Part shown: positions 39,218 through 64,000 of the stretch, piece by piece
How positions within the stretch are numbered: the first letter of the stretch is position 1
How the letters are laid out: every line of letters starts with the position of its first letter
Virus genome (UHGV): UHGV-1374897
Length of the DNA: 64,000 nt
Source: a virus
Strand: one strand, 5' to 3'
Notes under the pieces: model-generated
Told to the model about the DNA's origin: nothing
Seen by the model: only the letters and a program-made list of their open reading frames with translations
The model's database searches: none
Made by a program: the position numbers and the translations under genes

Positions 39218-39220
39218 ATC

Positions 39221-47073: not shown

Positions 47074-50000
47074 ATGGCCATTGACTTTAGTACCGCCAAT
47101 ATGTCCGACTTCACTCCGAAGTCGGGAAGCAGTATTGCACGTGAACAGCGAGCCGTAGAAAGGCACGCCGCGTGGCAAGAGACGCAAGCGCAGAAACAAG
47201 AAGACAGAAAACAGAAAGCACTGGACCGCGAGCAAAGGCTAGCGGAAAAGAGACAGACCCGTGCGGAGAAAGCCGCAGAAGCCACCGCAGAGTTTGACAC
47301 CTTTATCGTTAAGTCCGTGGATGCCTTTGCGGAGAAACAGAAAAAGGATGCGGAACACGCGAAGAATGTAGAATGGCAAGATAAATCCCGCGCCCATACG
47401 GAACAAGAATGGAAAACCGCCGAGGAAAATAAAGCCCTCGACATCTTGAACAAAGGAAACCGTGGGTACAGCTTTGAGGGAATCGACTACATGAAAGACT
47501 ATGTAGAGCGCGGAGAGGATGCACTGGTTGATTTGACGGCCGCCGCTCGTGGCGATAAGGATGCTATTAAAAAGATTACGAATAATACGGGCATCGTCGC
47601 AGTCCTTTCCTCCGAACTTCCTCCCCAACATTCTGCATTCTTATCCCGCTCTGGCTTCGGAAGTGGAGAGGACGGGAACCCCGTCGTAACGGAAAAGTTC
47701 CTCGCTATTGCCGCGGACAGAAACCGTAACGCAAAGGCGGTGGCCAAATCCATTGCCACCACAATGGAGAAGGCCCGGAAGGATTACCTCAACAAGAATC
47801 TAGATGTTGTGTCTGGTAAACCTACGGCACAAGCCATCGAGACCGCACCTATTGCTTACACCGCAGAAGAAATAGAAAGCGTCATCAATACGATTAGGCG
47901 CGAAGACATTGGCAACTATCGTGCCGCTAAGGCTCTTTACGACAAACACCGCTCTTCTTCGACGGAGGGCGTGCAGAAGAAAACCCCCAGCCAAACGAGC
48001 GTGGGGGAGCTTGGCGTTGGCGAATTCTCTGATTCAGCACCTTCATTTACTGGGAATGTTTTTGCTGAACTCGCCAACCTTTCCAAGTCTCCCAGCAAAA
48101 TGTTCCGACTTGTCCGCGACTACGGGGATTACCTGTCCCGGAGTACGGAAGATATTAAATCCCCGGAAGCCAAGGAATCCGATTCCCTTTCTCCCGCCGC
48201 TAAACGTGCAGGGGAAATGGCAGTAGCGCAGGTTAAAGCCGTGGACAACATTGTCTCGCGGATGGAAGAGAGCTACACCGGATTGGATGCCGTGGGACTA
48301 AGGGATGCTCTCCTTAACCCCGAAGCAGTAGCTTCTGCGGCATTGGCCCTTGCCCCCGGCGTGGACATGGATGCAGTGCGCGAACGAGCAAATACCTTAG
48401 CCACCGAGCGTCATGCCGTGGTAACCTCCGACTACCAGAAAGCAATGGCTGATGCCATGATGGAAGAATTGGCTACAAGGTTTCCGGGGGTTCCGAAGAA
48501 TATATTACTACAGGCCGGGACGACGAAACTGATTCAGGACTATACCACCAAAGCTACACCGAGAGGCACCCTCATGGATGCAGTCAAAGGCGCACTGGCT
48601 AACTACCGAAGCGCGGCAGGACAAGTTGCGGACGTACTTACCTTCCAACCGGGGAATAGTGTGGGCAAGACCACTGACCCAATGAGTACGATGGAATGGA
48701 GGAAGGGAACGAGGCACGGCTCTTGGGAGTATGGTGTAGTGGGAGGCCCTGCCTTTGAAGTAGGTCCCGAACAGTTGAAGGAATACATGGCCCAGTACCA
48801 TATTGAAAGTACTCGCGATGCCCTTAACTCCCTCTCCCATGCCGCACGTATGGGTGACTTGGGCGTAGGTCGTGGCAGTCTCTTTGCGTACAACCCGCAC
48901 ACCAAGGAAGTTGATACGAACGCCACACTCGAACTGAACCCCAATGCTCTCTACAATGATAAGCTGATGGACCAGAGCATAGAGGCTCTCCGTGCTAGTG
49001 GCGCGGACGAAGGTCTCATCAATCGCACCATTGAGAAGTTCCAGAACCTCCGCAAGAAATCCGCACAGGAACTTGTGAAGGACAACATTGCATTGGACGA
49101 GACGCTGGGGACGCTTCGCGATACGTGGCTTGGCTCCGGCTTGCAGTTCAACCCTATCTTGACTGAATCCATGAAGCATCTGGACAAGCACCTTTCCTTC
49201 AAGAATTTTTACAACGAACAGAAGGAAGTGGGCAAGAGTGACGAGGACATCCTCTCCGCATGGCAGGAGAAAGGGCAAGACACCATCAACTCTGTTCTCC
49301 GTGGGTTGCAGATAGGTACACACAAGGCAATCGACCTTGGGACAGGTGCCGCCTATGGTGCTCTTCTCTTTGCACAGAATGCAGTTGGCAGTCGTGCGGC
49401 GATGGAACATACCCGCACCCTCTGGGACCAGCTGAACAAAAAACAGGAAGCGGAAGCTGAACTTGTTCGAGGCAATATCCTTGCGGATTATACTGCGGAA
49501 ATCGCTAACCTCGGCTACCAAATGGTAGCAACCGCGGGGGCTGGTAAAGTTGGCGGCCTCGCTGGGCGTGCACTGGAACGTACCGCGCTATCGCGGTTCG
49601 CGAAGGCAACGGCTAACGTTGTAGCGAAGCGGGCAGAAGCTCTTGTCCCTGCCGCCCGTCCGGGATTGGCGGGACGTTTGAGTGGAACTATTCAGCGCAA
49701 CCTCGACAACCTTGCGGCGTTGAACCTCGAACGGGCAGGAGCTGGAGCCGGGGTAAATCTTAGCATCATCTCGCAGGTTGCACCGAATGCTTACTCCGAC
49801 ATCTTCTATACCATTTATGATAGGGAGATGGAAGGGAAGGAACCGACTGCCGAGAACACGAACAGGGCACAGAGCATTGCCAACATGCGTGCCCTCTTTG
49901 GTGCGGCTCTCGTATCTACTGGTAGTACTCTCATCAACAACCGCGCAGGTATGGATTCCTTCATGCGTAAGATTGTTGGGGCTAAAAACCTTCGCGGTCA

Positions 50001-53000
50001 ATCTCCATTCCAAACTCTTGAACGGAAGATGGCCGGATGGAGAAGCAAGCCATTTAAGGAGATGAACACGAAGAAAAAGACGTTTGCCGTTGCTTCCTAT
50101 CTGTACAGCACGAGCAAGGCCGTAGTGGAAGGAGCCACCGAAGAACTGGCAGACGAATTCCAAGAATGGGCATTTACCGAACTGGTGAAGAACGGAGAAA
50201 TCTCTGAATCTTCTATTGCCACTACCGACCAAGTGATTAGCGGTGCCATAAAGATTGCTTTCCTCGGAGGTATCGGCGGCTACGTTGGTAGCCACTTAGC
50301 TGGTGAAGGGAACATACGTTTCCAAACCGAAGCCGCTCCAACTCTCGATGTAAAGGATGCTACTTCCATGCTACCGGATATTACGAAAGATGCGAGCAAC
50401 ATCATCGAGGAAACGGGCAAAGCCATTACCAAAAACAATGTGCCGGAAAGCTTGGTAGAAACCGGAAAGAAGGTTATCGAGATTGCCGGGGAGAAGGGGG
50501 ATGCCGCGGAAGTTGCCCGCGAATGGGTGGACAAATCCATTGCCCATGAAAGTCTAGTTGTCTCCGACGAAACCCGCAAGGCATGGGTGGATGGCGCAGT
50601 CCGTATGGGTATCAGCAACTTCACCCAGTTCCGCAACCTAGTTGAACGGGCCTCCGAAATACATACCTATGAGGGCAGTGCCGCGGCAAGCTCCTTCATG
50701 GCAGAAGCCATTAACGACTTGCCCAATACCCTGTCATTCCCAAATAAGGAAAACCTCGACACCATGCGAACCATGTTGTCCGAAGCCCTTGATGCTATGG
50801 GAGACCGGGTTCAGGTTATCGAAGTAGACGACGACCTGTCCATCATTACTACAGGGGACGAGGACCTTGATGCCGCCATTAACGTTATTAACGGATTGAC
50901 GGAAGCCGCGGCTACCACGGAATCCCCGGCTACCACGGAATCCCCGGCTACCACGGAACCCAAGGAATCCCCGGTAGCTATTGCCCGGAAGGAGAGGGAC
51001 AATGCTATTGCCCCCATCACTGCTATGGTAGAGACGGGAGTAGTTACCCCCAGTTCCGTGGAAACCGTGGATAACATGGATGCGGCAATCGCCTCGTTCG
51101 ATAGTAATACTGGTGCGTGGCTCTCCTATGGTACGCCATTGGAGCGCGGCGCGAAGCTCGTCTCCTTGAACGAGATGACCGGGATTAACGCCCCCATGAT
51201 TACCAGCAACACGGGAGAAACCATTGTCATCGCTCCGCACGCAAGCATGTACAACACAGGTGAGGGAGGTACCCCCAGCACCAAGTGGGGAGACAAGGTC
51301 TCCGCTCTCAATCTCCCGACGGATGGGACTGGCGCAAATGCCTATGGCATCCTTTCGGACCTTCAAGCTAATGCCTCCCCCGCACAGGCCGCGGCCATTG
51401 ATGGAGTGCTCCGCGCACTGCATGCCGCTGGTTTGGATGTTGCTATCCGAGCCACCAATGCCCCGGCGAACATCTCTTCCCCCGCCAGTATCACCTACAT
51501 GAACGGCACGGACGGGAAGCTTGTCGGCGGTGTCATTGACCTGTACGTGGACCGGGACAATGCGATTGAAAGCGTAACGGGAACGGTACTACACGAAGTC
51601 ATCCACCTCATTGACCGTCATCTTCGTGCCACCAACGCGGACTATTCCCAGCGGATGGATAAGATTAGAAGCGCGATTGCAGAGAACTACAACAATATTG
51701 TTGATAGTCTCTCCGCTATGTATGATGCTAGCGTGGACATCAATGAGATGAACGCCATCGCCGCGCTCGCTTCTGACCTCAACTATGGTCTCCGCGGCCC
51801 GGACGAATTTGCCAGTGTCGCGTTCTCCAATCCTGTCATGAACTTCATGATAGCGGAAGCTAGCGGAGACAATATAACCATCACGGATTTGGCTCGCTAT
51901 GCCGAAGCGGCTGGAGGCAGGAGGCCCATTCATGTGCGCCTCATCGAATGGCTTAAGGATTTGATTAGGGACGTGCAACAAACTGCGGACGCTATGGACG
52001 GAACCACCGCCGCAGAACACGTGGCTGAATGGGATTCCTATGTGGCCCGCATCGCGGACATGACCCCCGGCAAGTGGTTCGACATGCCTCGCACTCCGTC
52101 ATGGAAGGTAGACGATACGGATTATACTATGGGCAACGGGGTAGATTATTTTAACCCGATGGCCTATGAGACTGACATGACCCGAAGACTGTCCTTCGGT
52201 CTGGCCGCAGAAATCATTGGCACGAATGCCGGGAACTGGGTAACCAGTATTAAGAACGGATGGCTGGGTGCAACCAAGAACTGGGACAAGGCTGGCATCA
52301 ATGTTAAGTCCGAGGAACAGAAGCTGGTTGTGCTGGAACAAATGGCCAACGTGAATGCGGCATACGAACGTAGTATTAAACGCATTGACAAAATTGGCGA
52401 TATGCTTCAACGCCGTGCGGATAAGCTGGGCTGGGATGCCGCTACGCGAAAGAAATGGAGCAAGTCCATTCTTGACATGTCGGGGAATATGGACAACGAT
52501 ATTGACCCTGAAACTGTTGCACGCATTAACGCAGAGGCTCAAGCAGAAGTTCGTCAGCATGAACAGACCCGCGACTTCCGTATCGCGTTGGCTAAGAAGA
52601 CCGTCACCGATGCCGTCAATAGGCACGCGGAAGCGGTGCGTCTGGCTAACTCCCTTGCGCTTAATAGTGAAGGGAGATTGGAAATCAACGACATGATGCG
52701 CCGGATTAAAGACATGAGCGTCAAGGGATATGGTGCCATGCTGGACAAGCAGGTAGCTCTCCCCATGCTTTCCCAGCAGATTCACAAATCGCTCTCCGAC
52801 CTTGGCTCTCGTATCTCCGCGACGGGGAATGCCAATCTGGAAACCACCTACTTTGGCCTTGCCCGCGACACACAAAACTATCTCGCGGATATGATTAACG
52901 AGGTGGATAGTCCCTTCTCTATGGATGAACTTCTGGACAGGTGGTCCAACCTTCGCAATGACTTCCTCTATGCGGAGAGTACAAACCATCCCACCATCGT

Positions 53001-56000
53001 CCCTATGATTCAGGACATCGCTAAGACACGGGCCGAAGCTAAACAAATCATCCGGGAAGCCAAGGATGATTTCTACGCCGCAACAAAGCGAGCGGGCGTA
53101 ACTCGCGCTGGCGTAGCTACCCCTGCTGGTTCCGTGTGGCTGAAACGGGACAACGCTATCCTCAATGCACGCCGTCAAAAACAAGCGGAGTATATGGCTA
53201 AGCGGGATGCCGCTGAACAGTGGCTTCTGTCACAGGGGGTTGTAGGTCAACTGGTCCACAATGTCATCGCCAATTCCCGTAAAGAAATTGCCGCAACGCA
53301 AATCTCTATTGCCAAGCTCATTGGAGATAGCCGCATGGCTGACAACGCCGCGGAGATGAATTATCTTCATCGCACCTACATGGCCGTAGGACGCCATGCC
53401 GGAGACTTCACCCGGACGATGAAGGACATCATCGCAAACCCCAACGGAGAACTGGCGCAGAAATACGACGGTCTGACGAAACTGTTGCAGGAAGCCGCAA
53501 TCTCTCATGCCGAAGCGCACCAGAGAGAACTGTCCGAAAACGTAAGCCAAGTGCTGGACAACATGCAGGCATTGGCCGCGCTCCACGACGAGTTGAAACT
53601 TCCGCTGGTGTCAGCTCCCACGGGAGCCTCCGCGAATTATAAACTCCTGTTCGAGGGTGTAGCCAAGAACTACAGGAACAGGGAAATTCTGGACTTCATT
53701 CAGAACAACTTCGGCCAGGTTCAAATGCTTGCAGATTTGAGGGACGGCCACAACATCAGTGCCATATATAATAAGGCCATGAGCATGATAGCACAGGCAG
53801 ACTATCGCACGAAGTCAAAGATGACAGAGGCGAAGGAAACTCTGGACATGAATGCCAGAGATAGTTTCCTCGCTGATGTCTTCTCCAGCCTTCCGGGAAA
53901 AACGATTGCGGACAAAATTGGCAGTCTTCAATCCCCGGCATCCGTGGCTTCCGAAGTGAACAAGGCCATCCCCACTATCCCGACTTCGGCCATTGACCAG
54001 ATATGGAACACGCCCGATATGAATGCCGCAGAACGACTGGACAAGACGCTCAATCTTCTTCGCGGTCAGGCTGGCGTTCTCATGAGGATGAACGGCATGG
54101 GCAACGTCATCTCCGCTACCGACTTGAAAGCGTTGCAATATCCGGAACTCTCCCGCCTCGCAGTGAACGATGCCATGAAGGCCATTGACGAAGTTCTGTC
54201 CAAGAAGAGGACGAATGAAGATGCGCTGGCCCAGCGGAAACGCTTGCCCGAATGGCAGAGGAAAGCTATGTATGAACTTAGCGACCTCACCATTGGGGAT
54301 GCCATTGGGACGTTACAGAATACCCTATCCATGCAGTCGAAGATTGCCGTGAACCAGTTGCTTGCTGACGAGTATGCCTCCGTACTGAAAGCGCAGGGTG
54401 TGGTCGTACCCCCGAATTCCACAAACCGTACCTCGGACATGGTGGAAATCTCCTTGAAGAATACGAAGAATGCGTTGAACGGAATGTACGCCGACAAGGA
54501 TGTAGCCGATGCCATCTACCGCATCTACAGACCGAGCGACGACATCCTGAATAACAGGACGGACGACTATAAGGAGGTGCGCAAGTACTGGCAGAAGTCC
54601 GGCAAGGGGCAAGGATGGTGGAATAAGGCGGGTGGCTTGGCTAACCTTTCTGTCTTAATAGCGAGTCCTAATTCCACGTTACGTAACTTATATGGTACAG
54701 TAGCTCAAATGACCCATGCGGGTGCACTCCCATTCACGGGGAGTAAAGACATCGCAAACCTTGTCGGGGACTGGGTCCAGTTGCGTAAGCTATGGTGGCT
54801 ATCACAGGGCAAGGACCTTGCTTCACAGGCTTCCGCGGATAGACTGCTGGCCGCGGAAGACAGGTACAACGAGAAGATTCGCTACTGGCAAGAGCTTGGT
54901 CTGCTGGACGCAGGTCAAGGGGAGTTCCTGCGCAACGTCTGGAAGTCTGACGAGTTCAGTAAGATGGCAGGAGAATTTGAAGAAGTGAATGAGGATTCCT
55001 TCTTCAAACTGGCCGAAGCTCTGAACGAGAAACAGGAACGGACGAAGGGCGAGGTGGCTAAGGATGCCGCCAAGATGGCGGGCAAAGTCGTAGCATGGCC
55101 CATCAAAACGATGTCCTTCGCCTATGGCTTGCCGGACGCGGCGGCCAAGATTGTTCTCTTCACTAACCAGAGAGCGATTGCCGATACCCAATTAAAGGTA
55201 CAACTGGCGCGGGCGAAGGGCAAGGCCAACCCCAATGCGCGGGACCAGATACTCATTGACGCGAGCCAGACTACCCAGAGTTGGGATGCTTATGTGGACA
55301 GGTATACTGCCCACATGGTGAAGAGCTTGCTCCCCACGGGTTCGCGTACTCCTTCGTGGGTGAAAACCCTGAATATAGTTGCGGCTCCGTTCTTCATGTT
55401 CCAGTACCATACCTTCCAGTCTGTAGCCTACAACCTTGGCCACGCCATAGGTGAAGGGGTAGACGGTGTGTGGGCTATCAATAACGGCATGAAGAAGGAG
55501 GGGGCTTACCTCTTGGGACGCGCTATCCTTCGTACCGCGGGTTCCTTAGTAACTATTTCTGCAACCTCTGCGGTCTCTTCCTGGGTTGCCCGACAGATTA
55601 TCGCCAGTGTCTTGGGAGATGACGATGACCGTAAAATCATTGACGACGCGGAAGTCATGAGGAAGCTGGCAGATAGTGGGCTAATTCCTGACTATGATAA
55701 GTTCGGGGACTTGATTGGCATCATAGATATGAAGCGACATGAGTTCGAGTATTTGAACCTTGAATACATGAACCCGTTCAAGACCATCAGGGTGTTAGCC
55801 AAAACCCTGCCCAGCCTCTTCATGGATATGGATGTGGACAAGTGGGGGATGAACAAGGTTGCCGAACTGAAAAACCTGCTGGAAAATACGGTGCTTGAAG
55901 AATCCCTCCTTCTGAATGCCGCTTCTGAATTGTTTAATGAGGAAGACTTCAATTACAAGCATAGCCTCTCCGGTGATGAAAGCGTCAACGTTCTCCCGGC

Positions 56001-56730
56001 AGTCGGCAACGCAATCCTGTTGGCCGCAGGGCTGAACCCCTCGTTCGGCAGTGGACATACATGGCAAGTCCTTGAACGATTCGCGACGGTTGCCAATAAA
56101 AAGATTCCCTTCTACGGCTGGGCAGTCAAGTCAGGTAAACAATTGTTTAGCGATACACCTGACATGAGTGCCGCGGCATACGGGTTACAGTCCTTGGGTG
56201 CGGGCCTCCGTCGTCCGAAGGATTTGACCGAAGCCCTTGCCGCCGGGTTAAAGAATGCCAACGCGGCAGTCACTAAGTCGAAGCGAATGAGCGTCCTTCG
56301 TCCGGACTTCTACAAGAGAATGGAATCCGGAGTGGATGTGGAATCTATGGAAGCCGTGGAAACCGCGGATGCCGTGAAGAATTTCACCAAGCTAGTCAAT
56401 AGTGTCCGGTTTGTTACGGAAATTACAAACATGCTTGACCCCGCTCTGCGGAAGGAAGTTCTGGCTTCCGCGATTGAGAGTTCCGGTATGAGTGCCAAGA
56501 CCTACGGCGCGGCCATGAAAGGCATCATGCCCTACATCATTAGCCCGCAAGCAGGACGTGAGGCTATCGCGAAGCTCAACCGTGAATTGCAGAAGTCTAA
56601 TACCACGGACGAGGGCAAACGCCTAATCGAAGAGCAGAAGAAACTCATTATCAACCTCATGAGGAAGGGTAGCATTCAGATTGATGGGGCATTGAGTGTG
56701 GAGGAAATTCATAATCGGATGAAACAGTAA
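47074..56730 (+). CDS. Giant 3218-aa protein with zincin-like HExxH motif: candidate virion-associated, ejected or polyvalent protein
   Basis: Single uninterrupted ORF. Extremely charged K/E/R/Q coiled-coil N-terminus. HEVIHLIDRH at nt 51592-51621 (aa about 1507). TTESPA linker repeats at 50913-50966. Confidence 0.7.
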   Translation: MAIDFSTANMSDFTPKSGSSIAREQRAVERHAAWQETQAQKQEDRKQKALDREQRLAEKRQTRAEKAAEATAEFDTFIVKSVDAFAEKQKKDAEHAKNVEWQDKSRAHTEQEWKTAEENKALDILNKGNRGYSFEGIDYMKDYVERGEDALVDLTAAARGDKDAIKKITNNTGIVAVLSSELPPQHSAFLSRSGFGSGEDGNPVVTEKFLAIAADRNRNAKAVAKSIATTMEKARKDYLNKNLDVVSGKPTAQAIETAPIAYTAEEIESVINTIRREDIGNYRAAKALYDKHRSSSTEGVQKKTPSQTSVGELGVGEFSDSAPSFTGNVFAELANLSKSPSKMFRLVRDYGDYLSRSTEDIKSPEAKESDSLSPAAKRAGEMAVAQVKAVDNIVSRMEESYTGLDAVGLRDALLNPEAVASAALALAPGVDMDAVRERANTLATERHAVVTSDYQKAMADAMMEELATRFPGVPKNILLQAGTTKLIQDYTTKATPRGTLMDAVKGALANYRSAAGQVADVLTFQPGNSVGKTTDPMSTMEWRKGTRHGSWEYGVVGGPAFEVGPEQLKEYMAQYHIESTRDALNSLSHAARMGDLGVGRGSLFAYNPHTKEVDTNATLELNPNALYNDKLMDQSIEALRASGADEGLINRTIEKFQNLRKKSAQELVKDNIALDETLGTLRDTWLGSGLQFNPILTESMKHLDKHLSFKNFYNEQKEVGKSDEDILSAWQEKGQDTINSVLRGLQIGTHKAIDLGTGAAYGALLFAQNAVGSRAAMEHTRTLWDQLNKKQEAEAELVRGNILADYTAEIANLGYQMVATAGAGKVGGLAGRALERTALSRFAKATANVVAKRAEALVPAARPGLAGRLSGTIQRNLDNLAALNLERAGAGAGVNLSIISQVAPNAYSDIFYTIYDREMEGKEPTAENTNRAQSIANMRALFGAALVSTGSTLINNRAGMDSFMRKIVGAKNLRGQSPFQTLERKMAGWRSKPFKEMNTKKKTFAVASYLYSTSKAVVEGATEELADEFQEWAFTELVKNGEISESSIATTDQVISGAIKIAFLGGIGGYVGSHLAGEGNIRFQTEAAPTLDVKDATSMLPDITKDASNIIEETGKAITKNNVPESLVETGKKVIEIAGEKGDAAEVAREWVDKSIAHESLVVSDETRKAWVDGAVRMGISNFTQFRNLVERASEIHTYEGSAAASSFMAEAINDLPNTLSFPNKENLDTMRTMLSEALDAMGDRVQVIEVDDDLSIITTGDEDLDAAINVINGLTEAAATTESPATTESPATTEPKESPVAIARKERDNAIAPITAMVETGVVTPSSVETVDNMDAAIASFDSNTGAWLSYGTPLERGAKLVSLNEMTGINAPMITSNTGETIVIAPHASMYNTGEGGTPSTKWGDKVSALNLPTDGTGANAYGILSDLQANASPAQAAAIDGVLRALHAAGLDVAIRATNAPANISSPASITYMNGTDGKLVGGVIDLYVDRDNAIESVTGTVLHEVIHLIDRHLRATNADYSQRMDKIRSAIAENYNNIVDSLSAMYDASVDINEMNAIAALASDLNYGLRGPDEFASVAFSNPVMNFMIAEASGDNITITDLARYAEAAGGRRPIHVRLIEWLKDLIRDVQQTADAMDGTTAAEHVAEWDSYVARIADMTPGKWFDMPRTPSWKVDDTDYTMGNGVDYFNPMAYETDMTRRLSFGLAAEIIGTNAGNWVTSIKNGWLGATKNWDKAGINVKSEEQKLVVLEQMANVNAAYERSIKRIDKIGDMLQRRADKLGWDAATRKKWSKSILDMSGNMDNDIDPETVARINAEAQAEVRQHEQTRDFRIALAKKTVTDAVNRHAEAVRLANSLALNSEGRLEINDMMRRIKDMSVKGYGAMLDKQVALPMLSQQIHKSLSDLGSRISATGNANLETTYFGLARDTQNYLADMINEVDSPFSMDELLDRWSNLRNDFLYAESTNHPTIVPMIQDIAKTRAEAKQIIREAKDDFYAATKRAGVTRAGVATPAGSVWLKRDNAILNARRQKQAEYMAKRDAAEQWLLSQGVVGQLVHNVIANSRKEIAATQISIAKLIGDSRMADNAAEMNYLHRTYMAVGRHAGDFTRTMKDIIANPNGELAQKYDGLTKLLQEAAISHAEAHQRELSENVSQVLDNMQALAALHDELKLPLVSAPTGASANYKLLFEGVAKNYRNREILDFIQNNFGQVQMLADLRDGHNISAIYNKAMSMIAQADYRTKSKMTEAKETLDMNARDSFLADVFSSLPGKTIADKIGSLQSPASVASEVNKAIPTIPTSAIDQIWNTPDMNAAERLDKTLNLLRGQAGVLMRMNGMGNVISATDLKALQYPELSRLAVNDAMKAIDEVLSKKRTNEDALAQRKRLPEWQRKAMYELSDLTIGDAIGTLQNTLSMQSKIAVNQLLADEYASVLKAQGVVVPPNSTNRTSDMVEISLKNTKNALNGMYADKDVADAIYRIYRPSDDILNNRTDDYKEVRKYWQKSGKGQGWWNKAGGLANLSVLIASPNSTLRNLYGTVAQMTHAGALPFTGSKDIANLVGDWVQLRKLWWLSQGKDLASQASADRLLAAEDRYNEKIRYWQELGLLDAGQGEFLRNVWKSDEFSKMAGEFEEVNEDSFFKLAEALNEKQERTKGEVAKDAAKMAGKVVAWPIKTMSFAYGLPDAAAKIVLFTNQRAIADTQLKVQLARAKGKANPNARDQILIDASQTTQSWDAYVDRYTAHMVKSLLPTGSRTPSWVKTLNIVAAPFFMFQYHTFQSVAYNLGHAIGEGVDGVWAINNGMKKEGAYLLGRAILRTAGSLVTISATSAVSSWVARQIIASVLGDDDDRKIIDDAEVMRKLADSGLIPDYDKFGDLIGIIDMKRHEFEYLNLEYMNPFKTIRVLAKTLPSLFMDMDVDKWGMNKVAELKNLLENTVLEESLLLNAASELFNEEDFNYKHSLSGDESVNVLPAVGNAILLAAGLNPSFGSGHTWQVLERFATVANKKIPFYGWAVKSGKQLFSDTPDMSAAAYGLQSLGAGLRRPKDLTEALAAGLKNANAAVTKSKRMSVLRPDFYKRMESGVDVESMEAVETADAVKNFTKLVNSVRFVTEITNMLDPALRKEVLASAIESSGMSAKTYGAAMKGIMPYIISPQAGREAIAKLNRELQKSNTTDEGKRLIEEQKKLIINLMRKGSIQIDGALSVEEIHNRMKQ

Positions 56731-56747
56731 CCCCTCCGTTTATATCC

Positions 56748-56786
56748 TTGACCTTCGGGGGCATGGGAGATATAATTCTCCCATGC
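56748..56786 (+). promoter_or_regulatory. Promoter TTGACC-N17-TATAAT with a 10-bp perfect palindrome GCATGGGAGA / TCTCCCATGC flanking the -10 box. Predicted leaderless start at ATG 56783.
   Basis: TTGACC at 56748-56753 and TATAAT at 56771-56776. Palindrome arms at 56761-56770 and 56777-56786. Confidence 0.5.
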
Positions 56787-57388
56787 CCTCTTTTCGTATA
56801 GTACCCAATCATATTATGGCCACCCCTCCGGGAGGCTGGAAGTTTGTTGTCCCCGAATCCATGAGTGTCAGGCTCAAGGGAACCAAGGTTTCCGCGGGTT
56901 CACTGGAACAACTCCGCAAATCAGTCGCCCGTCTCTTCATGAATAACGGAGAACCCTTTCAGGTTGCGCTCTTTGAATCAGAGCTTTGCGCTTCTCTCCC
57001 TCCCCAGTACTGCACCACCTGCGGTGATAAGGGAATTGAATGGAAGGAGTATGAACCCATGAGTGCCAAGAAGATATTGGCCTTCTTCGGTACTATGGTT
57101 CTCTGGTATCGACGGGGACACAGGTTTGTAGACGAGGCAGAAGCTCGCCGCCGCTATGCTATCTGCGCCTCCTGTCCGTATGCTACCTCTACGCCTCCCC
57201 CGGATTTAGAGAAGCAGGGGTGCGCTACCTGCGGTGCCGAAGGAGCTGGCCGCAAATTCCTCAAGGAAAAAATTTCCGGGCTGGCAGACCTGACTAATGG
57301 GGCGGCCCCTCTCTATTGTACCTTATGTGGTTGCGACCTATCAGTAAAGGCTCACTTCGATATTGAATCTGACTGCTGGCTAAAATAG
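56783..57388 (+). CDS. Cys-rich zinc-binding protein, 201 aa
   Basis: CTTCGDKG, CASCPY...CATCGAEG and CTLCGCD cysteine clusters. Confidence 0.5.
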   Translation: MPSFRIVPNHIMATPPGGWKFVVPESMSVRLKGTKVSAGSLEQLRKSVARLFMNNGEPFQVALFESELCASLPPQYCTTCGDKGIEWKEYEPMSAKKILAFFGTMVLWYRRGHRFVDEAEARRRYAICASCPYATSTPPPDLEKQGCATCGAEGAGRKFLKEKISGLADLTNGAAPLYCTLCGCDLSVKAHFDIESDCWLK

Positions 57389-57407
57389 CTCTTGACATTA
57401 TTTCAAG

Positions 57408-57788
57408 TTGATACATACTTCCCTCCGTATGAACTCAATATTCACAGCAGAAGAAGCTAGCAAGCTCCCCCTGTATAAGGGATGCACGGTGTTCATTAAC
57501 GTACATTGCGGTGGCATGCCCACAGTGAGAGCCGTTGAAGTATCTGATGTCGCCTTCGAATGTTTCGTTTCTCGTGTCAGAATCGAATACATCAACCACC
57601 GATTCAGAACCATAGATAATGGCTATCTCAACCACACTGTCTTCCTCACCTATCAGGACGCGGCCAAGCATGCGTGCCACGATTACGTCGAAGAGATAGA
57701 GAGGCTCGAACAACAACTCGAAACCAAAAAGAAAAAGCTCGCCGAACTGATGGCGAGCATTGAGAAAAACGAAGTTCCTGTCAGTTAG
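57408..57788 (+). CDS. Hypothetical protein with C-terminal coiled coil
   Basis: ORF. The possible true start is MNSIF at 57429, downstream of a TTGACA(57392-57397)...TACATA element. Confidence 0.45.
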   Translation: MIHTSLRMNSIFTAEEASKLPLYKGCTVFINVHCGGMPTVRAVEVSDVAFECFVSRVRIEYINHRFRTIDNGYLNHTVFLTYQDAAKHACHDYVEEIERLEQQLETKKKKLAELMASIEKNEVPVS

Positions 57789-57792
57789 GTAT

Positions 57793-57820
57793 TGACATCA
57801 TAGGTACTGCATGGTATAAA
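57793..57820 (+). promoter_or_regulatory. Sigma70-like promoter TTGACA-N16-TATAAA with no protein gene downstream
   Basis: TTGACA at 57793-57798 and TATAAA at 57815-57820. Confidence 0.45.
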
Positions 57821-57826
57821 GAACCC

Positions 57827-57912
57827 GCAACGACATCATTCTGTTTGGACTGTAAGTTGTTTGGGTTCTAAGCGAAAACCCCGGAAGGAAATATCTTCCG
57901 GGGTTTTTGTTT
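57827..57912 (+). ncRNA. Candidate small RNA of about 85 nt between a promoter and a bidirectional terminator
   Basis: Promoter at 57793-57820, terminator at 57872-57913, and no ATG inside. Confidence 0.3.
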
Positions 57913-57913
57913 T
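57872..57913. terminator. Bidirectional rho-independent terminator
   Basis: A-tract, then stem CCCCGGAAG / CTTCCGGGG with loop GAAATAT, then TTTTTGTTTT. Lies between the convergent + and - gene blocks. Confidence 0.7.
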
Positions 57914-58418
57914 AGTTCTGTTTCGCTTCGAGGGATTCTATTAGCTGGGTAATCTCTCCGATACATCGTTGCAATTCTGATGCGGGGTTTACCTCAACCA
58001 ACTTATCATGCGCCCAGATATAGAAGAGCCGTACCAGAATGGAATCTTCGGGACTACGTTGGTAGCTATGGCTCATCACCGTGCGCCTGAACTGTTCAAG
58101 GATAAGGTAAAGGTCAAACGTTTCGAACACCTTGGACCAGTGCTTAGCGTGGTACTCCAAATACCATCGTGCTTTCTTGAGGTCTTCAATACGGTTCTTC
58201 TTGTACTGTGACCGCATCAAATACTTGACGGCGTTCCCTAATGCGAAGGGAAGCTTGCCAGTAATTTCTATGGTCTCGATTCCGCTGGGGTGGGAGGTGT
58301 AATGCTTCGGGTGGTTGACGGCATCGTTCATGGATTCCTTTCCTTCCGGCAGGTCAGGGAAAGCCTGTGAGTTTACCTTGGTTGAAACGATTGCGTTGAT
58401 TGCTTCGTGAGCGTGCAT
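57912..58418 (-). CDS. DUF3310-like phage protein
   Basis: Pattern NHPKHYTSHPSGIETIEI...GNAVKYLMR...EDLKKARWYLEY. Confidence 0.45.
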   Translation of the reverse strand: MHAHEAINAIVSTKVNSQAFPDLPEGKESMNDAVNHPKHYTSHPSGIETIEITGKLPFALGNAVKYLMRSQYKKNRIEDLKKARWYLEYHAKHWSKVFETFDLYLILEQFRRTVMSHSYQRSPEDSILVRLFYIWAHDKLVEVNPASELQRCIGEITQLIESLEAKQN

Positions 58419-58419
58419 G

Positions 58420-59025
58420 TTATTTGGTGAGGTGCTTGTAAATTTGTTTGTTGATATATTTGCGAATAGACATCTTGGCTATGACGAAGAGGCGGGGAGA
58501 GGGTAGAGTTAAACATCCTTCTTTGACTGTCCACTTCCTTGTAATTCTCCGTGCGAACTTGTACGCCTTCCTGCATATTTCCAGAGCCGCAGAGGAACTT
58601 CCAACAAGAGCCACAGGAACTCTACTGTTGATGAAATAGCCATGAAATTTGAACTGGAAGAAAAAGGAGTTGTCCTCCTTAATCCAGCTAGGGGTTTCAT
58701 CTGGGGTAGTTTCTCCAACTGCACCAGTAGATATTTTATTGGACGCAAGGATGCGACCATAGGTTAGTTGTTCCTCGGTCAGTTGTTTCTTCGACCGGAG
58801 AGAGGCATGGATAAGTTGCTTATGTTCAGGCATGATGCGAGACCGAAGCTTGTTAGCTTTTGTCTCCCTCAAGAACTTCCTTTGCTCCGCGGGGCTATCT
58901 CGATACCAGTAAAATTTGTCTCCATATTTCTTGCACTTGAACTTTCCTCTTCGACGCTTCCCATGAGGGTGTTTCATGTTGGCCGCCATCTGTTCCCGAT
59001 ACTTCTTGAGACTTATTTTGCTCAT
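58420..59025 (-). CDS. Basic hypothetical protein, 201 aa
   Basis: Lys/Arg-rich ORF, possibly DNA-binding. Confidence 0.4.
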   Translation of the reverse strand: MSKISLKKYREQMAANMKHPHGKRRRGKFKCKKYGDKFYWYRDSPAEQRKFLRETKANKLRSRIMPEHKQLIHASLRSKKQLTEEQLTYGRILASNKISTGAVGETTPDETPSWIKEDNSFFFQFKFHGYFINSRVPVALVGSSSAALEICRKAYKFARRITRKWTVKEGCLTLPSPRLFVIAKMSIRKYINKQIYKHLTK

Positions 59026-59684
59026 AGTTCTGGAACGGAATGAAGTCGGTTAGTATCAACTGGGATGTCCTTGAATGCCCATGCGAGGTCATACTTCAAT
59101 TCCATCCTTTGCCGGAGGGCCAGAAGGAGCGCACGGATTTGCGGCTGGGCCGCACCGTCTAGTCGCATACGGAAGATGTGCCTCCACTCGCGGAGGTTAG
59201 CGGTCACGCCAATCACCGTAGCCGTGCAGTTCGGAAGCAACCCCCGCGCCTCTTCGGGAGGCAGTCCTCCTTGGACAAGTTCCACGTACTTCTCCGCAAG
59301 GTTCTGGCAGGTATCCTTAAACTCTTCAATGGTCTTCGGGTCAACCTTCTCGTCGCTAAAGAACTGCGGACGGACGAAGCAAATGATTCCCTTCCGGGAG
59401 TAGTTGACGTACCTCTGGCTCTCCATGCTCACGCTCATGTGACGATGACGGACAAGCTGATGTGTCACCGCTCTATCCGTCGAGAGGACTGCCGGGATGT
59501 TGATGTGCTCGATGACACTTTCGTGTCCGCGATTTATGATACGGGAGAGAAACGCAATGGGGTCGCCCTTCGGTTCGCTTTTATAGCAGATACGACCCAT
59601 TATCTCTGCGGCCTCAACCTGTTTATCTATTACTGATTTAGTTAGCGGAAGTGTGACTTCCTGATTTATCCATAGAACGTTCAT
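59022..59684 (-). CDS. thyX: Flavin-dependent thymidylate synthase
   Basis: ThyX signature RHRHMSVSMESQRY. The probable start is MNVLW at 59684; the longer ORF call is 59022..59840. Confidence 0.75.
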   Translation of the reverse strand: MNVLWINQEVTLPLTKSVIDKQVEAAEIMGRICYKSEPKGDPIAFLSRIINRGHESVIEHINIPAVLSTDRAVTHQLVRHRHMSVSMESQRYVNYSRKGIICFVRPQFFSDEKVDPKTIEEFKDTCQNLAEKYVELVQGGLPPEEARGLLPNCTATVIGVTANLREWRHIFRMRLDGAAQPQIRALLLALRQRMELKYDLAWAFKDIPVDTNRLHSVPEL

Positions 59685-59958
59685 GAATGATATGTTTGGC
59701 TTTGTAGTTTGCGAGTTCAAGAGTGGGGAATGTCCATCCATACTGGCCCCACTCACTGGTGCTGGGGAGGTATTCATCTCCGGCTTTAACCTCGATGAAA
59801 TCATTGTCCGCTTTGTGCTGACGGATGATGACAACCTCATAATTGTTTACCTTCCCGCTTCCTTTATGGGTTAGCTCATAGATGGCAACGCCCGCCTCAC
59901 GGAAAATGAGACGACAGGTGAAGGGGTTGCGTGTAAATTCGTTAGGAATTTTCTTCAT
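59638..59958 (-). CDS. Hypothetical protein, 106 aa
   Basis: ORF between ThyX and the ligase. Confidence 0.4.
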   Translation of the reverse strand: MKKIPNEFTRNPFTCRLIFREAGVAIYELTHKGSGKVNNYEVVIIRQHKADNDFIEVKAGDEYLPSTSEWGQYGWTFPTLELANYKAKHIIHERSMDKSGSHTSAN

Positions 59959-61987
59959 TTGTAATTGAAGGGTTAATCATTTGCATGAATTCTTCTTCTG
60001 TAATTGAAGGAATCTTATGGAGCCTCGCAATCTTTTGCTTGTGCTCCCCCGGTTCCTTACCGACAACAAGGTAGTTGGTCTTCCTTGACACGTTCTCCTT
60101 GACCGTGCCTCCCATGTCCTGAACAAGTAGGTTATATACATGGCGAGGCTGGGACAGGGTTCCCGTGATGACGAAGTTTACTCCCCGCAACGCGGTGCTC
60201 TTGGGAACATTGCCCTCGGCATTGGGAATATCTCCTGTCATAACCATTGCCGTCATCTCGTTCCACGTTGGCACGGTCTCCATGTAATTCAGAATTGCCT
60301 CGGTCATCAGGAGGCCGAACTCCGCATGACGCTTGTTCCTTAAATCTTCGGGGAAGAGAGTGAGGAAAGCGTAGAGATTGGGGTAAGCATAGGAGAGACT
60401 TTCCGCACGGGTGCAACCGACGTGGGGAATCTCCATTGCAGTAATCCATTGGGATAATGTTGCATGGTGCTTCCGTTCCTCCACGATTTCAAGGAATCCT
60501 CTGTACCCTTGAGTTCCGGGGATTCCGCTAATCAAATTGTCCATCATGCCGGACATGAGAAGCAGGAACGGGTGGTGGAGGTAAGCAGTTTCTGCGGTCG
60601 GAGGCTCTACATCATTCTCCCCGGCGAGCAGTTTGTCTGCAATCATGCGTGAGAATACAAGCCCCATGCCATCGATGTCTAGTGCGTTCTTACCGCATGC
60701 GTATTCCAGCTTGGCCGCTACCTTATCCCGGCACAACGGATTGGTACAGAAGATGTTGAGGTCACTAGAGGATAACGTGGAGCCGCAACAGGGACAGGTC
60801 AGAGGGACAACGGAAACCGTATTGTCACAGCCGCGGACCCTACGAACGTAGGGAATAATCTCCCCTGCCTTAACCACCTCCACGGTATCACCAATGTGGA
60901 AGGAGGCCGCATTAGCCACGTTGGAGAGGGTGGCACGGGAAACGTTGGTTCCACCAATCTTCACCGTATCGAAGACAGCAACCGGGGTTAATACCCCTGT
61001 CCTTCCTACTTGCCAAATGACATCGCGAAGGGTAGTTTCAACTCCCTGCGGGTTGAACTTAAAGGCTACAGCATCCTTCGGGTGATGGGCGGTAGCCTCT
61101 CCCGCATGGATTATAGCGTTCTTCTGGTTCAACTTAAACACAATACCATCAGTGGGATAGGCATTGTCTTCCCGCAGGTGCTTGGCCATGTCCCGGATAT
61201 ATTCATCCGTCAGGGCTTCACCATTGGGGTATACATTGGGGAGGGTTGCGAGGTCAAACATTTCCATCAGCCACCCATGCAGTTCCATGCGGGATTCAAC
61301 ACCCTCCGGGAAGGGACTTGCATCGAACGGGATGAAGGTAATGAGCCAGTCAGACCACTTGAGCTTATTGTTGCGGAGTTGACCAACGGCACAGGCGCGG
61401 AGGTTGGAGTACCCCATGCTTTCCACCTGCCCCTCGTTGCTCTTAGCCACAACCACTTCCCCACGGATAGCTCCCGTGTAATTGCCATAACTTGGCGGGG
61501 CCATGTAGAGAACCTTATCAAGGGGGATTACTTCCCCCTCGGTTCCGTCGCCACGGGTAACGGCCTTGACGAGCCGCCCCTTTTCAATGTACAGAACGAG
61601 GGTAAGGCCGTCATACTTCGGTTCAACCACGACGTCACGTCCGGCAATCCAGCCGCGAAGCTGGTCCATACCAATTCCGTCCTTGCCCTCATGAATCTTG
61701 GCGAGAGACAGGACGGGATTGGGATGCCGGAAGGTCTTGGCTCCCCGTTGTACGTCGTCTCCAAGACTATCGAGTTCCTTGGATTCCGGGGAACGGGAAC
61801 GCAGTTCTTCAACCAGAGTATCGTAAACCGTGTCGGGAATGAGGGTCTTCCCCTCATTGTAGTAGGAGCTATTGAAGAATGCAATCGCTTCCTCCAACTC
61901 CTTCACGCTCATGTTTTTAGGATTACCTATCTCCATTGTCGTCTTCCTTTCCGACGTGTATGATACCTTCGCTAATGATTCTGTCAA
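59942..61987 (-). CDS. ligA: NAD-dependent DNA ligase
   Basis: Adenylation motif KYDG (VVEPKYDGL), Cys4 zinc finger CPCCGS...CTNPLC, and C-terminal BRCT-like region KTNYLVVGKEPG. Confidence 0.8.
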   Translation of the reverse strand: MTESLAKVSYTSERKTTMEIGNPKNMSVKELEEAIAFFNSSYYNEGKTLIPDTVYDTLVEELRSRSPESKELDSLGDDVQRGAKTFRHPNPVLSLAKIHEGKDGIGMDQLRGWIAGRDVVVEPKYDGLTLVLYIEKGRLVKAVTRGDGTEGEVIPLDKVLYMAPPSYGNYTGAIRGEVVVAKSNEGQVESMGYSNLRACAVGQLRNNKLKWSDWLITFIPFDASPFPEGVESRMELHGWLMEMFDLATLPNVYPNGEALTDEYIRDMAKHLREDNAYPTDGIVFKLNQKNAIIHAGEATAHHPKDAVAFKFNPQGVETTLRDVIWQVGRTGVLTPVAVFDTVKIGGTNVSRATLSNVANAASFHIGDTVEVVKAGEIIPYVRRVRGCDNTVSVVPLTCPCCGSTLSSSDLNIFCTNPLCRDKVAAKLEYACGKNALDIDGMGLVFSRMIADKLLAGENDVEPPTAETAYLHHPFLLLMSGMMDNLISGIPGTQGYRGFLEIVEERKHHATLSQWITAMEIPHVGCTRAESLSYAYPNLYAFLTLFPEDLRNKRHAEFGLLMTEAILNYMETVPTWNEMTAMVMTGDIPNAEGNVPKSTALRGVNFVITGTLSQPRHVYNLLVQDMGGTVKENVSRKTNYLVVGKEPGEHKQKIARLHKIPSITEEEFMQMINPSITNEENS

Positions 61988-62237
61988 GCTCTTTCTCTAC
62001 TGTTTTTTGACATGTTTCCGGGTAAGGAACCCGAAGTAAAATCATTATCATGTGAAGGTACTCCTTCTTTGTTGGTTCTGCCCTATATATCTCTGCTTGC
62101 CGACATGCGCGATGGCATACACGTTCAAGCAGGGCACGGGCAATTGTACGATAATCTTCCTGTTCGCTAGTCGTTTCCATTGCTTTATGCTTCGTGGGGT
62201 AGGATGATTTTACGGGCGTTGGCTTCCTTCTCGGCAA
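61923..62237 (-). CDS. Hypothetical protein, 104 aa
   Basis: ORF. Confidence 0.35.
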   Translation of the reverse strand: MPRRKPTPVKSSYPTKHKAMETTSEQEDYRTIARALLERVCHRACRQAEIYRAEPTKKEYLHMIMILLRVPYPETCQKTVEKELDRIISEGIIHVGKEDDNGDR

Positions 62238-62784
62238 GCTCCGACTTATCTACGAAGGTAAGAGTAGACTGTTCCATCAGGTTCATGGAAATTACATTGC
62301 TCGCCACGGAGAAGAGACGGAATGCGGAGATGCCTCCCTTCTCTTCATCAATGCGGTCCGGGTCGTTCTGACTGGCATACGCTATCAAGAGGTGAATGGC
62401 CATGAAGAGGACGAGTGCCTTAATCATGACGTGGGAATCTGTAAAGATATTGCACGCCTTGCCGGGGTTCTCAAGCTCCTGCATAAAGGCAATGTATTCC
62501 TTCACAGTGACGAGGTTCTCGGCGACTTCTGCCATGATGAACTGAACTCCCGCCAGCGGCGGGGGTTCAATATCAAAGATGTTGGCGGCGTAGTCCCCCA
62601 GTTCAAGAGCTTTCTCGGCAACCGCATCCGCAGGCGCGTCGATGGGCAGGTTGAAGGCAGGGACTGCATCCCACTCCCGTTGCAGTCTTTCCTTCAACAT
62701 GATAGACTTCGGTTCGGTGAGAATGCGGGCTACCTCTTCCTGAATATTATCAAGGCTCAATTCGTTTGGTTCTGTGGTGTTCAT
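62185..62784 (-). CDS. Hypothetical protein, 199 aa
   Basis: ORF. Confidence 0.45.
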   Translation of the reverse strand: MNTTEPNELSLDNIQEEVARILTEPKSIMLKERLQREWDAVPAFNLPIDAPADAVAEKALELGDYAANIFDIEPPPLAGVQFIMAEVAENLVTVKEYIAFMQELENPGKACNIFTDSHVMIKALVLFMAIHLLIAYASQNDPDRIDEEKGGISAFRLFSVASNVISMNLMEQSTLTFVDKSELAEKEANARKIILPHEA

Positions 62785-62810
62785 GTACGGATAATAGTAT
62801 CTGGGTTTTA

Positions 62811-63347
62811 TTACTTGTCAAGAGAAGTTTCTTCGTTTCTGTCTAATTCATTCAGAAGATTGCAGAGACGTTCCATTTCGGTTGTTCCCTCACATGAAGG
62901 GTTGACACGTAAGGACCGATTCTTCTTGAAGTCCCAAATAGCTCCGTCGATAACTCTGAACCGATAATGCAGGTCGATTGGCCTGATGAGAAGAAGAGAG
63001 GAAGGGGTTACTGCTTTGATAGTCCCTGTACATTTATCCTTAATACCGACAAGAACGGAATCCTTCTCGTCCTCCATTACAGTCCATTTACCTATATGTT
63101 CTCTACAAATTACCTCGTCCCCCTCCTTAAACTTCCGAAGAGGTGTAGGGTAACATTTGATTGCTTCTTCATGACGGACAACCCCCTCACCCAGAGGGAA
63201 AGCATTTAAGACTTTGTATCTGTAGAAGTTCGGGGAAAGTTCGATTACCTGTCCCACGTAATACTCTCCACCCAGTTCTCTGACAATGTAGTCACCGGGG
63301 TTGATGTCCTCGTCGATATATTTTTGATAGTCTTTGGGTTCTAACAT
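62811..63347 (-). CDS. Hypothetical protein, 178 aa
   Basis: ORF. Confidence 0.45.
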   Translation of the reverse strand: MLEPKDYQKYIDEDINPGDYIVRELGGEYYVGQVIELSPNFYRYKVLNAFPLGEGVVRHEEAIKCYPTPLRKFKEGDEVICREHIGKWTVMEDEKDSVLVGIKDKCTGTIKAVTPSSLLLIRPIDLHYRFRVIDGAIWDFKKNRSLRVNPSCEGTTEMERLCNLLNELDRNEETSLDK

Positions 63348-63461
63348 ATTCTTGATAGTAGTGGTTATAACTTTTCGGATTTCGTTCGTATTGTTCTTTT
63401 TGTTCCTGCATTATCTTCCGAGTTAAACGGGAAACCCGAAGGAGTGCAAGAAATTGTCGGG

Positions 63462-64000
63462 TTAAACTCTCAAATTGCATTGGAAGGAACTCTTGTGGAG
63501 CGAGAGGATTTCCTCATTGGTCAGGGTCCCCATGTTCAGCCGCATGTCGTCGGAAGCCATCGTCAAAATCGGAGTGCCTTCGATTGATAGGGGGAAGGCC
63601 ATCTTGGCGGCGAGGACTAGCGAGGGGCGGGCCTTAAACATAGCGTCGTATAGGGTTTCGCTATATCGAACGGCGTGATGTCCTCCGAAATAAACTTCGG
63701 TGGCATACGTGCAATCCTTGCCTCGCCGCGTCTCTGGCGCGTTTAACCGGAGGATGCGCACCGTGTGGTCCTCATACGCCTTCGGGTCATAAAGTGTGCG
63801 GATGATGAAGTGGGTATCTGTCATGATTACCTTGCCGATTCCGAAGGCTTCAATCAGGAACTTAGTCCGCACGGATTGGAGATTGTCAGCCTCTGGATAC
63901 CGGGGAATATAGAGTTCAGATTTAGTCTTGGAGGGAAGGATAATAGTATCCCAAAGTTCCCCGGTGCTTCCCTCATTATTGCTAGTCCAAGAATGAAGGA
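63462..64000 (-). CDS. Hypothetical protein, N-terminally truncated by the window edge
   Basis: The reading frame stays open upstream of the GTG at 63872 all the way to position 64000. Confidence 0.45.
   Translation of the reverse strand, partial: LHSWTSNNEGSTGELWDTIILPSKTKSELYIPRYPEADNLQSVRTKFLIEAFGIGKVIMTDTHFIIRTLYDPKAYEDHTVRILRLNAPETRRGKDCTYATEVYFGGHHAVRYSETLYDAMFKARPSLVLAAKMAFPLSIEGTPILTMASDDMRLNMGTLTNEEILSLHKSSFQCNLRV

Follow-up and report, generated by a model that had tools for sequence, protein, structure and literature searches.

A candidate small RNA gene with its own promoter and terminator at a convergent gene junction of an uncultured gut phage

Introduction

What is made from a promoter that has no gene behind it? 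The question is raised by a 123-nt gap between convergent genes in UHGV-1374897, an uncultured gut phage of ~70 kb of which a stretch of 64 kb (hereafter the window) was analysed. An earlier note on this DNA had described, within the gap, an orphan promoter followed by a bidirectional terminator and had proposed that a small RNA is encoded at the point where the two gene blocks meet. The strand switch is real: the last open reading frame (ORF) of the + block, which spans ~770 to 57788, stops at 57788, and the first ORF of the − block is a DUF3310 gene at 57912-58418, so that the putative small-RNA unit lies exactly inside the gap. Comparison with related phages leads us to favour, with a probability of roughly 0.55, the reading that the element, as a gene complete in itself, encodes a non-coding RNA of ~87 nt which would act in trans by base pairing. 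That a discrete non-coding transcript of whatever function is made from the element appears, judging from the same comparisons, distinctly likely. The small-RNA interpretation is supported by conservation in the shape of a promoter, by a conserved body, by a covarying terminator, by the non-coding status of the element and by its autonomy from neighbouring genes.

Relatives of the locus

IMG/VR, ENA, Logan and human-gut metagenomes yielded some 60 related contigs, the longest of 72 kb. Their common gene order comprises a giant protein of ~3200 amino acids, a Cys-rich protein of 201-215 amino acids, a small variable ORF, the element and, in the opposite orientation, the genes for DUF3310, ThyX and a ligase. 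Window-like loci, with the reference arrangement, make up lineage A. In lineage B (L020, L035, L036 and L039) the C-terminal half of the upstream ORF is replaced. Lineage C (L044-L048) shares 72% amino-acid identity with the window in DUF3310 and 76% in the Cys-rich protein, the latter being 80% identical in lineage E (L138-L143). The small upstream ORF is deleted from lineage F (L137), where a remnant of its 3′ end remains, and in lineage G (L125 and L173) the upstream ORF and the element are inverted as a unit that converges on the Cys-rich gene.

The promoter and the predicted start of transcription

Direct reading places the end of TATAAA at 57820, as in the earlier note, and moves the start of TTGACA from 57793 to 57792, the spacer being 17 nt long and not 16 nt. 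The site had been described as one of the best promoter matches in the window; TTGACA-N15-19-TATAAW is found once on the two strands of the 64-kb window and dinucleotide-preserving shuffles lead one to expect it 0.05 times. The promoter had also been called strong. It agrees with the consensus at 11 of 12 positions and has the TG of an extended −10 element, but the word has to be qualified as regards the last base of the −10 hexamer, which is A and not T in every lineage. A generic promoter scan does not list the site because it demands T at this sixth position.

In alignment A3, which contains nine lineage representatives, the −35 hexamer is invariant across lineages A, B, C, E, F and G, as are the G of the TG and the TA.A.A of the −10 hexamer, variants of which are TATAAA, TATATA and TACAAA. 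The length of the spacer stays within 17-18 nt while its sequence drifts, identity being 33-67% between most lineages and reaching 79% for the close pair E/F. The 6-nt discriminator is likewise variable (GAACCC, ATCCTT, ACCCTT and AATCCC), and invariance resumes at GCAACG, the G of which (G57827) is the seventh nucleotide past the −10 hexamer and follows a pyrimidine, giving Y at −1 and R at +1.

In this phage, intergenic gaps immediately ahead of genes hold about a dozen sites of the form TTGAC(A/C)-N16-18-TAnnnT, in which TGn is often present (examples in Table 1). Several phage promoters sit 5-7 nt ahead of an ATG, and those at 14578, 17626, 29667 and 56748 have the A of the start codon as the sixth or seventh base past the −10 hexamer, which suggests that leaderless mRNAs are produced. 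Since the element has the same −10 geometry as these leaderless promoters of the phage, its transcription is predicted to begin at G57827; together with the terminator this would give a primary transcript of 87 nt, in line with the length of about 85 nt that had been anticipated. A terminator and a promoter overlap at window positions 56748-56790, where the loop of a 14-bp hairpin behind the giant gene is TATAAT, with TTGACC 17 nt upstream; the start codon of the Cys-rich gene, an ATG at 56783, falls in the 3′ arm, 7 nt past the −10 hexamer, an arrangement that would yield a leaderless mRNA starting within the preceding terminator.

The body of the predicted RNA

The sequence 57827-57913 folds at −33.4 kcal/mol (z = −4.7), and none of 200 shuffled sequences folds as well. 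When lineages are folded separately they share a layout in which a 5′ stem-loop is followed by 9-12 unpaired nt of linker with an invariant stretch and then by a long terminator hairpin. The stem-loop, in which GCAAC/GUUGU closes an imperfect inner stem below a loop with the invariant UUGGAC, is predicted in most lineages, and 89-90% of its alignment cells are paired as compared with 11-51% in slid controls. The most conserved stretch of the body reads UGUUUGGGUUCU(A/U)AG (columns 32-43, 45 and 46 of alignment A2 are invariant), corresponding to UGUUUGGGUUCUAAG in the window. The minimum-energy folds leave this mostly single-stranded stretch unpaired in lineages A, C, E and G, and UGUUUGGGUUCU has no pairing partner in most of the separate folds.

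Between lineages, the 47-51 nt of the body, from +1 to the base of the terminator, share 77-94% identity. In these comparisons the nucleotide identity of the neighbouring DUF3310 and Cys-rich genes is 66-80%, and the terminator and the spacer show 33-67% in most of them, with higher values only among the related lineages C, E and F. Direct reading confirmed that no ATG occurs between the −10 hexamer and the hairpin, as had been stated for the window; no lineage has an ATG in the predicted transcript, and there is no conserved reading frame. A 2-nt indel shifts the sole short TTG frame between lineages and the resulting peptides differ, so that a micro-ORF was rejected as a candidate for lack of an ATG and of a conserved frame and peptide. 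On this comparative evidence, the part predicted to be transcribed is under selection as RNA and not as protein.

A covariance model, built from the lineage alignment, recovers a single copy of the element in the window (104 bits); it finds neither a second copy there nor any copy in the distant relatives L129-L136, the gap of L131-L136 having hairpins. Rfam gave no match in the window at the gathering score, and a permissive scan returned only sub-threshold matches driven by the terminator. The exact body pattern is absent from the bacterial genomes of the GTDB species set, which thus provide no host-encoded homologue, and a relaxed promoter-plus-body pattern was found among viral contigs in the same phage family only. 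A match to a 19-mer in one unrelated AT-rich phage family was dismissed as chance. In the collection of cultured phages, 24 kb of the phage had no megablast match and the terminase no tblastn match; the lone match was a 95-nt stretch of DUF3310 in Burkholderia phage BCSR52. By these searches the window has one copy of the element, which does not occur outside this phage clade.

The terminator hairpin

The hairpin and U-tract had been placed at 57872-57913. Both are present and the end is right, while the hairpin already starts at 57870. Its core is formed by CCCCGGAAG (57879-57887) pairing with CTTCCGGGG (57895-57903), A:U pairs extend the stem to 19 bp, and the U-tract TTTTTGTTTT lies partly within and partly after the hairpin. 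The opposite strand offers the identical hairpin followed by UUUUCGCUU, which makes bidirectional termination plausible in the lineage of the window. The designation as a bidirectional terminator thus suits lineages A and B, which have a good U-tract (UUUUUGUUUU), and does not extend to the other lineages, where the − strand has no T-run and the + strand a weak one (GUGUGCUUAUUU in lineages C, E, F and G).

A covariance search in related phages, suggested earlier as a check, showed that the helix is kept through compensatory changes: 10 of the 19 pairs are altered on both sides, and none of 500 shuffles reaches the observed covariation. For this count 26 sequences were re-aligned to the covariance model, and 85% of the terminator cells pair, a share that drops to 45-62% if the partner is slid. 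The stem is represented by at least four unrelated sequences, namely CCCCGGAAGG/UCUUCCGGGG, GGCCUCCGUAGG/CCUACGGAGGCC, AAGCCCAGCAGGG/CCCUGCUGGGCUU and GGCCCCGGUAGGA/UCCUACCGGGGCC, and double changes are also seen inside lineages (C-G to U-A in L171, and in L084 versus L085). The loop and top of the hairpin (57888-57894 in the window; likewise in L010, L025, L026, L034 and L087) occur in two mirror orientations per lineage: lineage A has either GGAAATATC or GATATTTCC, lineage C either GGTTAATTCC or GGAATTAACC. This amounts to an inversion polymorphism of the hairpin loop.

Autonomy of the element

The element keeps its own promoter in every lineage and persists in L137 despite the loss of the upstream ORF. 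In the inverted arrangement of L125 and L173 it again ends at a hairpin that faces a convergent gene. In most lineages the stop codon of the upstream gene lies 2-4 nt from the −35 hexamer, and read-through transcripts of the upstream ORF would include the small-RNA sequence as a 3′ untranslated region (UTR).

In at least seven genomes an insertion sequence (IS) replaces the terminator exactly after ...GGGUUCUAAG, leaving promoter and body intact and followed by the terminal hairpin of the IS. The IS is ~1.3 kb long and encodes, on the − strand, a TnpB-like protein of 418 amino acids (L012, 5466-6765; also L013, L149, L150, L162, L163 and L166). Its junction follows ...GGGTTCTAAG, matching window positions 57873-57923, and the last residues of DUF3310 are altered. 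The insertion is not a simple one, as ~51 nt of the uninterrupted sequence are missing. If a guide RNA were made from the right-end flank of the IS, it would be antisense to the body of the small RNA.

Assignment of the host

A scan of metagenomes with the body pattern returned, besides phage contigs, a 3988-nt contig (ULVV01056554.1, here L156) that carries at 23-2324 an array of clustered regularly interspaced short palindromic repeats (CRISPR) with 36 repeats of type I-C-like sequence, GTCGCACCCACACGGGTGCGTGAATTGAAAC. At least 12 of its 35 spacers match the phage family with ≥90% identity along almost all of their length, and one of them targets the RNA gene itself (Table 1). The product of the gene adjoining the array is identical to an Akkermansia muciniphila protein (NCBI, UniRef). 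The spacers and this exact neighbour point to A. muciniphila or a close relative as the host; the exact repeat pattern had no match in the scanned bacterial genomes. The possibility that the element mimics the repeat, as an RNA anti-CRISPR, was rejected, the best local alignment to the type I-C-like repeat scoring 5-6 where shuffled sequences average 5.8.

According to a Cappable-seq study of the gut microbiota of mice, A. muciniphila uses −35 and TATAAT-like elements, YR at −1/+1 and 10% leaderless start sites (PMC4782308). It is therefore apt to regard the promoter of the element as one of the sigma-70 type. No Shine-Dalgarno sequences were seen in the window and the regions upstream of genes are A/C-rich, features that, like the common leaderless starts, would be explained by such a host. 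The phage is probably virulent; no integrase turned up, although no search was aimed at one. Recent Akkermansia phage isolates are listed in the NCBI taxonomy, but we found no paper describing them, and they were not detectable in the cultured-phage collection searched. The literature search likewise yielded nothing usable on Hfq in Akkermansia or on Akkermansia phages of this type.

A possible mechanism and its targets

Conservation and the published host promoter data suggest that the host RNA polymerase with its primary sigma factor would start at G57827 from TTGACA-N17-TGG-TATAAA, and that transcription would stop at the GC-rich hairpin and U-tract at 57870-57913, of which the hairpin is backed by covariation. 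The RNA would then have three parts: the 5′ stem-loop, the G/U-rich stretch UGUUUGGGUUCU, which is invariant and mostly single-stranded, and the hairpin of the terminator. As the upstream operon has the sequence of the element as its 3′ UTR, more of the small RNA could arise from read-through transcripts by processing. We envisage a riboregulator acting in trans, in which the G/U-rich stretch, with UUUGGGUUC as seed, may pair with A/C-rich initiation regions devoid of Shine-Dalgarno sequences; the mRNAs concerned could be those of the host, of the phage or of both.

The complement of the G/U-rich linker, AGAACCCAAACA, does resemble the A/C-rich, Shine-Dalgarno-less initiation regions of the phage. 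Besides the gene itself, the longest perfect complement in the window measures 12 nt and covers codons 2-5 of the − strand gene at 62811-63347 (AUG UUAGAACCCAAA, 63333-63347). Of the duplexes with 60 start regions, the best one has −21.4 kcal/mol and includes the start codon of gene 37532 (UAGAACCC-AUG, 37524-37534, + strand), a gene of which relatives were obtained for lineages A and B. These two sites lie at the 1.1% and 0.13% quantiles, respectively, of 1500 random sense-strand windows. Target prediction, which had been recommended for host and phage mRNAs, was run within the phage and has thus produced leads, suggestive without being significant when 60 regions are considered. Given this, and given that gene 62811-63347 was not found in all lineages (see below), host targets are at least as likely. 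In the A and B genomes the 5′ UTR and the first five codons of gene 62811-63347 (ATG TTAGAACCCAAA; 178 amino acids) are identical and the remainder falls to as little as 54% amino-acid identity, a mosaic boundary that is located right behind the stretch complementary to the small RNA.

A more specific possibility, which we regard as unlikely, is that the RNA serves host takeover or counter-defence in a way so far undescribed for gut phages, either as a riboregulator suited to a host without Shine-Dalgarno sequences, its seed occluding A/C-rich Akkermansia initiation regions, or with the molecule acting as a decoy for a host RNA-binding or defence protein. If true, this would be the first functional regulatory RNA known in a phage-host system of the Verrucomicrobiota.

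Alternative explanations

How far do these observations favour a base-pairing RNA over other uses of the same DNA? A genuine transcript could instead pair with no mRNA and sequester a protein of the host, for instance a global regulator that binds RNA or part of a defence system. This would agree with conservation that resides mainly in the primary sequence, including the UUGGAC of the 5′ loop and a GGA near the terminator loop in most lineages, and with the fact that the searches in the phage found no convincing conserved mRNA target. However, no partner protein is indicated, repeated motifs like those of known sponge RNAs are missing, the resemblance to the type I-C CRISPR repeat of the host does not go beyond chance and the adjacent protein yielded no usable structure; we consider this explanation rather improbable. 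The element might also act exclusively in cis, as the 3′ UTR and terminator of the upstream operon, with a promoter that blocks or collides with convergent read-through and no function in trans. Its position at a convergent junction, its sharing of the 3′ hairpin with the opposing operon and the closeness of the upstream stop codon to the −35 hexamer are what one would expect in that case. Neither collision nor termination, however, calls for a body of 47-51 nt that is more conserved than the coding neighbours, and the unit outlives the loss of the upstream gene while the terminator sequence itself is free to change. Moreover, the element of L125 and L173 faces a different convergent gene and hence has no fixed partner in cis. 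An exclusively cis-acting element thus seems to us no more credible than a protein decoy.

The remaining explanations do without a functional small RNA. The conserved 50 bp could constitute a site in the DNA, used for protein binding, replication or packaging, as their high sequence conservation and the weak structural covariation of the 5′ part would allow, but the block is flanked by a promoter-shaped pattern upstream and by a covarying hairpin downstream, the ends of the ~70-kb contigs lie elsewhere and the sequence is single copy without iterons or repeats, which makes such a site very unlikely. Still less probable is a fortuitous promoter-like sequence beside an ordinary terminator, with nothing transcribed. 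Matches to the consensus are weak evidence when taken alone (the generic scan finds 17 promoter-like sites in the 12 kb from 52000 to 64000, where 11 are expected), and the −10 hexamer is without its final T. Against this, six lineages keep the hexamers invariant around a spacer that has diverged, the exact pattern is hardly expected even once by chance, and a dozen or so equivalent promoters stand directly upstream of genes of this phage. Finally, the window does contain an 8-codon frame started by TTG, from which a tiny protein, MDCKLFGF, could be translated; in the absence of an ATG, with a 2-nt indel that shifts the frame and with products that read MDCKLFGF, MDCKLCLGS and MDYSVWV... across lineages, we give it the least credence of all.

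Several points nevertheless weigh against a small RNA that pairs with mRNAs in trans. The start site, the 3′ end and the abundance of the RNA are all inferred from the DNA. The promoter may be weaker than its score implies, as the −10 hexamer ends in all lineages in A in place of the normally critical T, and lineages C, E, F and G do not have a canonical U-tract past the hairpin. The covariation of the 5′ stem-loop is not significant; its sequence varies too little for that, and the stem-loop is therefore treated as tentative. The terminator count comes from an alignment made to fit the model, and such fitting favours pairing. Since all lineages belong to one phage clade, the number of independent events is small. 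The element is absent from L129 and L130 (55% protein identity), where the gap has hairpins, and it would thus be an accessory feature. As for the targets, the evidence within the phage is at chance level once corrected for 60 start regions, and gene 62811-63347 was not found in the loci of lineages C, E, F and G, which cover part of each genome.

Relation to known systems

Phage-encoded small RNAs acting in trans are exemplified by DicF of prophage Qin, VpdS of Vibrio phage VP882 and PreS (PMC12197685). The RNA predicted here would resemble them as a short non-coding phage transcript with a hairpin like that of an intrinsic terminator and a conserved unpaired stretch able to pair with mRNAs. 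It differs in having no sequence or Rfam relationship to them, and in that the host is a verrucomicrobium and the phage looks virulent. To our knowledge, no riboregulation has been described in a verrucomicrobial host. The OOP RNA of phage lambda, 77 nt long and transcribed from its own promoter pO, is a cis-antisense RNA to cII (PMC12197685). The two are similar in size, and common to both are a promoter of their own, a strong terminator and a position at the end of a neighbouring gene; however, OOP overlaps the 3′ end of cII in antisense, whereas the overlap with DUF3310 is limited to the hairpin and the stop codon. A cis-antisense mechanism would not be conserved in any case, since the facing gene is a different one in the inverted lineage.

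Small RNAs of the MicL/DapZ type are embedded in 3′ UTRs and have their own promoter. As in these, the promoter of the element is found right where the upstream gene ends, and the upstream mRNA uses the same terminator; in contrast to them, the promoter lies just past the stop codon, outside the coding sequence, and the unit outlasts the loss of the upstream gene. Intergenic small non-coding RNAs, most of them without an assigned function so far, are also reported from the transcriptomes of lytic phages, for example Pseudomonas phage PAK_P3 (PMC4933390). Those RNAs were detected experimentally, whereas the Akkermansia phage RNA is predicted by comparative genomics and is unrelated to them in sequence. 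With no Rfam family and a resemblance to OOP, DicF, VpdS and PreS in kind only, the element would in effect define a new family of phage-encoded small RNAs.

A. muciniphila is among the most studied health-associated gut bacteria, and little is known of its post-transcriptional regulation or of its takeover by phages. The element offers a compact and precisely bounded candidate, with predicted ends, a predicted seed and natural variants in the form of genomes without it, an inverted lineage and terminators replaced by an IS. The analysis also assigns a host to a widespread family of 70-kb gut phages and indicates that the phage relies on promoters of the host type, many of which would give leaderless mRNAs.

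Gene context and further features

Table 1. Positions of the element, its parts and associated features in the window
Feature	Position	Strand	Remarks
−35 hexamer TTGACA	57792-57797	+	direct reading; invariant in 9/9 lineage representatives; starts 3 nt past the stop codon of the upstream ORF
Promoter spacer, variable part	57798-57811	+	full spacer 17 nt (57798-57814)
Extended −10 element, TGG + TATAAA	57812-57820	+	TGG 57812-57814 (TGn type), TATAAA 57815-57820
Predicted primary transcript (candidate small RNA)	57827-57913	+	~87 nt; starts with the initial base of the cross-lineage invariant block GCAACG
5′ stem-loop (tentative)	57827-57860	+	GCAAC/GUUGU closing stem; loop holds UUGGAC
Most conserved stretch UGUUUGGGUUCUAAG	57858-57872	+	mostly single-stranded linker; proposed seed
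Terminator hairpin	57870-57912	both	19 bp; GC core 57879-57903; common to both convergent transcription units
U-tract TTTTTGTTTT	57904-57913	+	partly within the hairpin, partly after it
Protospacer	57841-57874	−	spacer 20 of L156, 34/34 match, inside the RNA gene; flank on the side of the protospacer-adjacent motif TTT
Upstream ORF	57429-57788	+	119 amino acids from ATG; last gene of the + block
DUF3310 gene	57912-58418	−	Pfam PF11753, E = 1.5e-15; last gene of the − block, convergent
Similar promoter sites (examples)	7519, 13483, 14578, 17626, 29667, 35982, 41332, 46994, 57392	+	
Similar promoter sites (examples)	62821, 61987	−	

The stop codon of the DUF3310 gene abuts the hairpin, and beyond this gene the − block contains ThyX and then an NAD-dependent ligase. 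The structure predicted for the 119-amino-acid protein encoded upstream of the element has a mean predicted local distance difference test score of 49.5, which renders it unusable; its C-terminal helix alone is confident. The structural block is closed by the giant ORF of 3218 amino acids (47074-56730), which is kept in all lineages and has homologues without a recorded Pfam domain. ARAGORN identified neither tRNA nor tmRNA in the window.

Two other regions of the window deserve mention. At 38041-39565, 1.5 kb of lower G+C content (0.446) with a strong AT skew contain one short ORF on the coding strand (38912-39217, 101 amino acids). Near the divergent end of the genome, two direct repeats of 121 nt (25-145 and 512-632; 74% identical) each comprise a TTGACA promoter on the − strand with a conserved hairpin (CAACGGGGG.CAACCCC) behind it, and a pair of 38-nt repeats (2182-2219 and 2273-2310) likewise bears − strand TTGACA boxes. 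These repeats may represent early promoters, leaders or further small transcripts.

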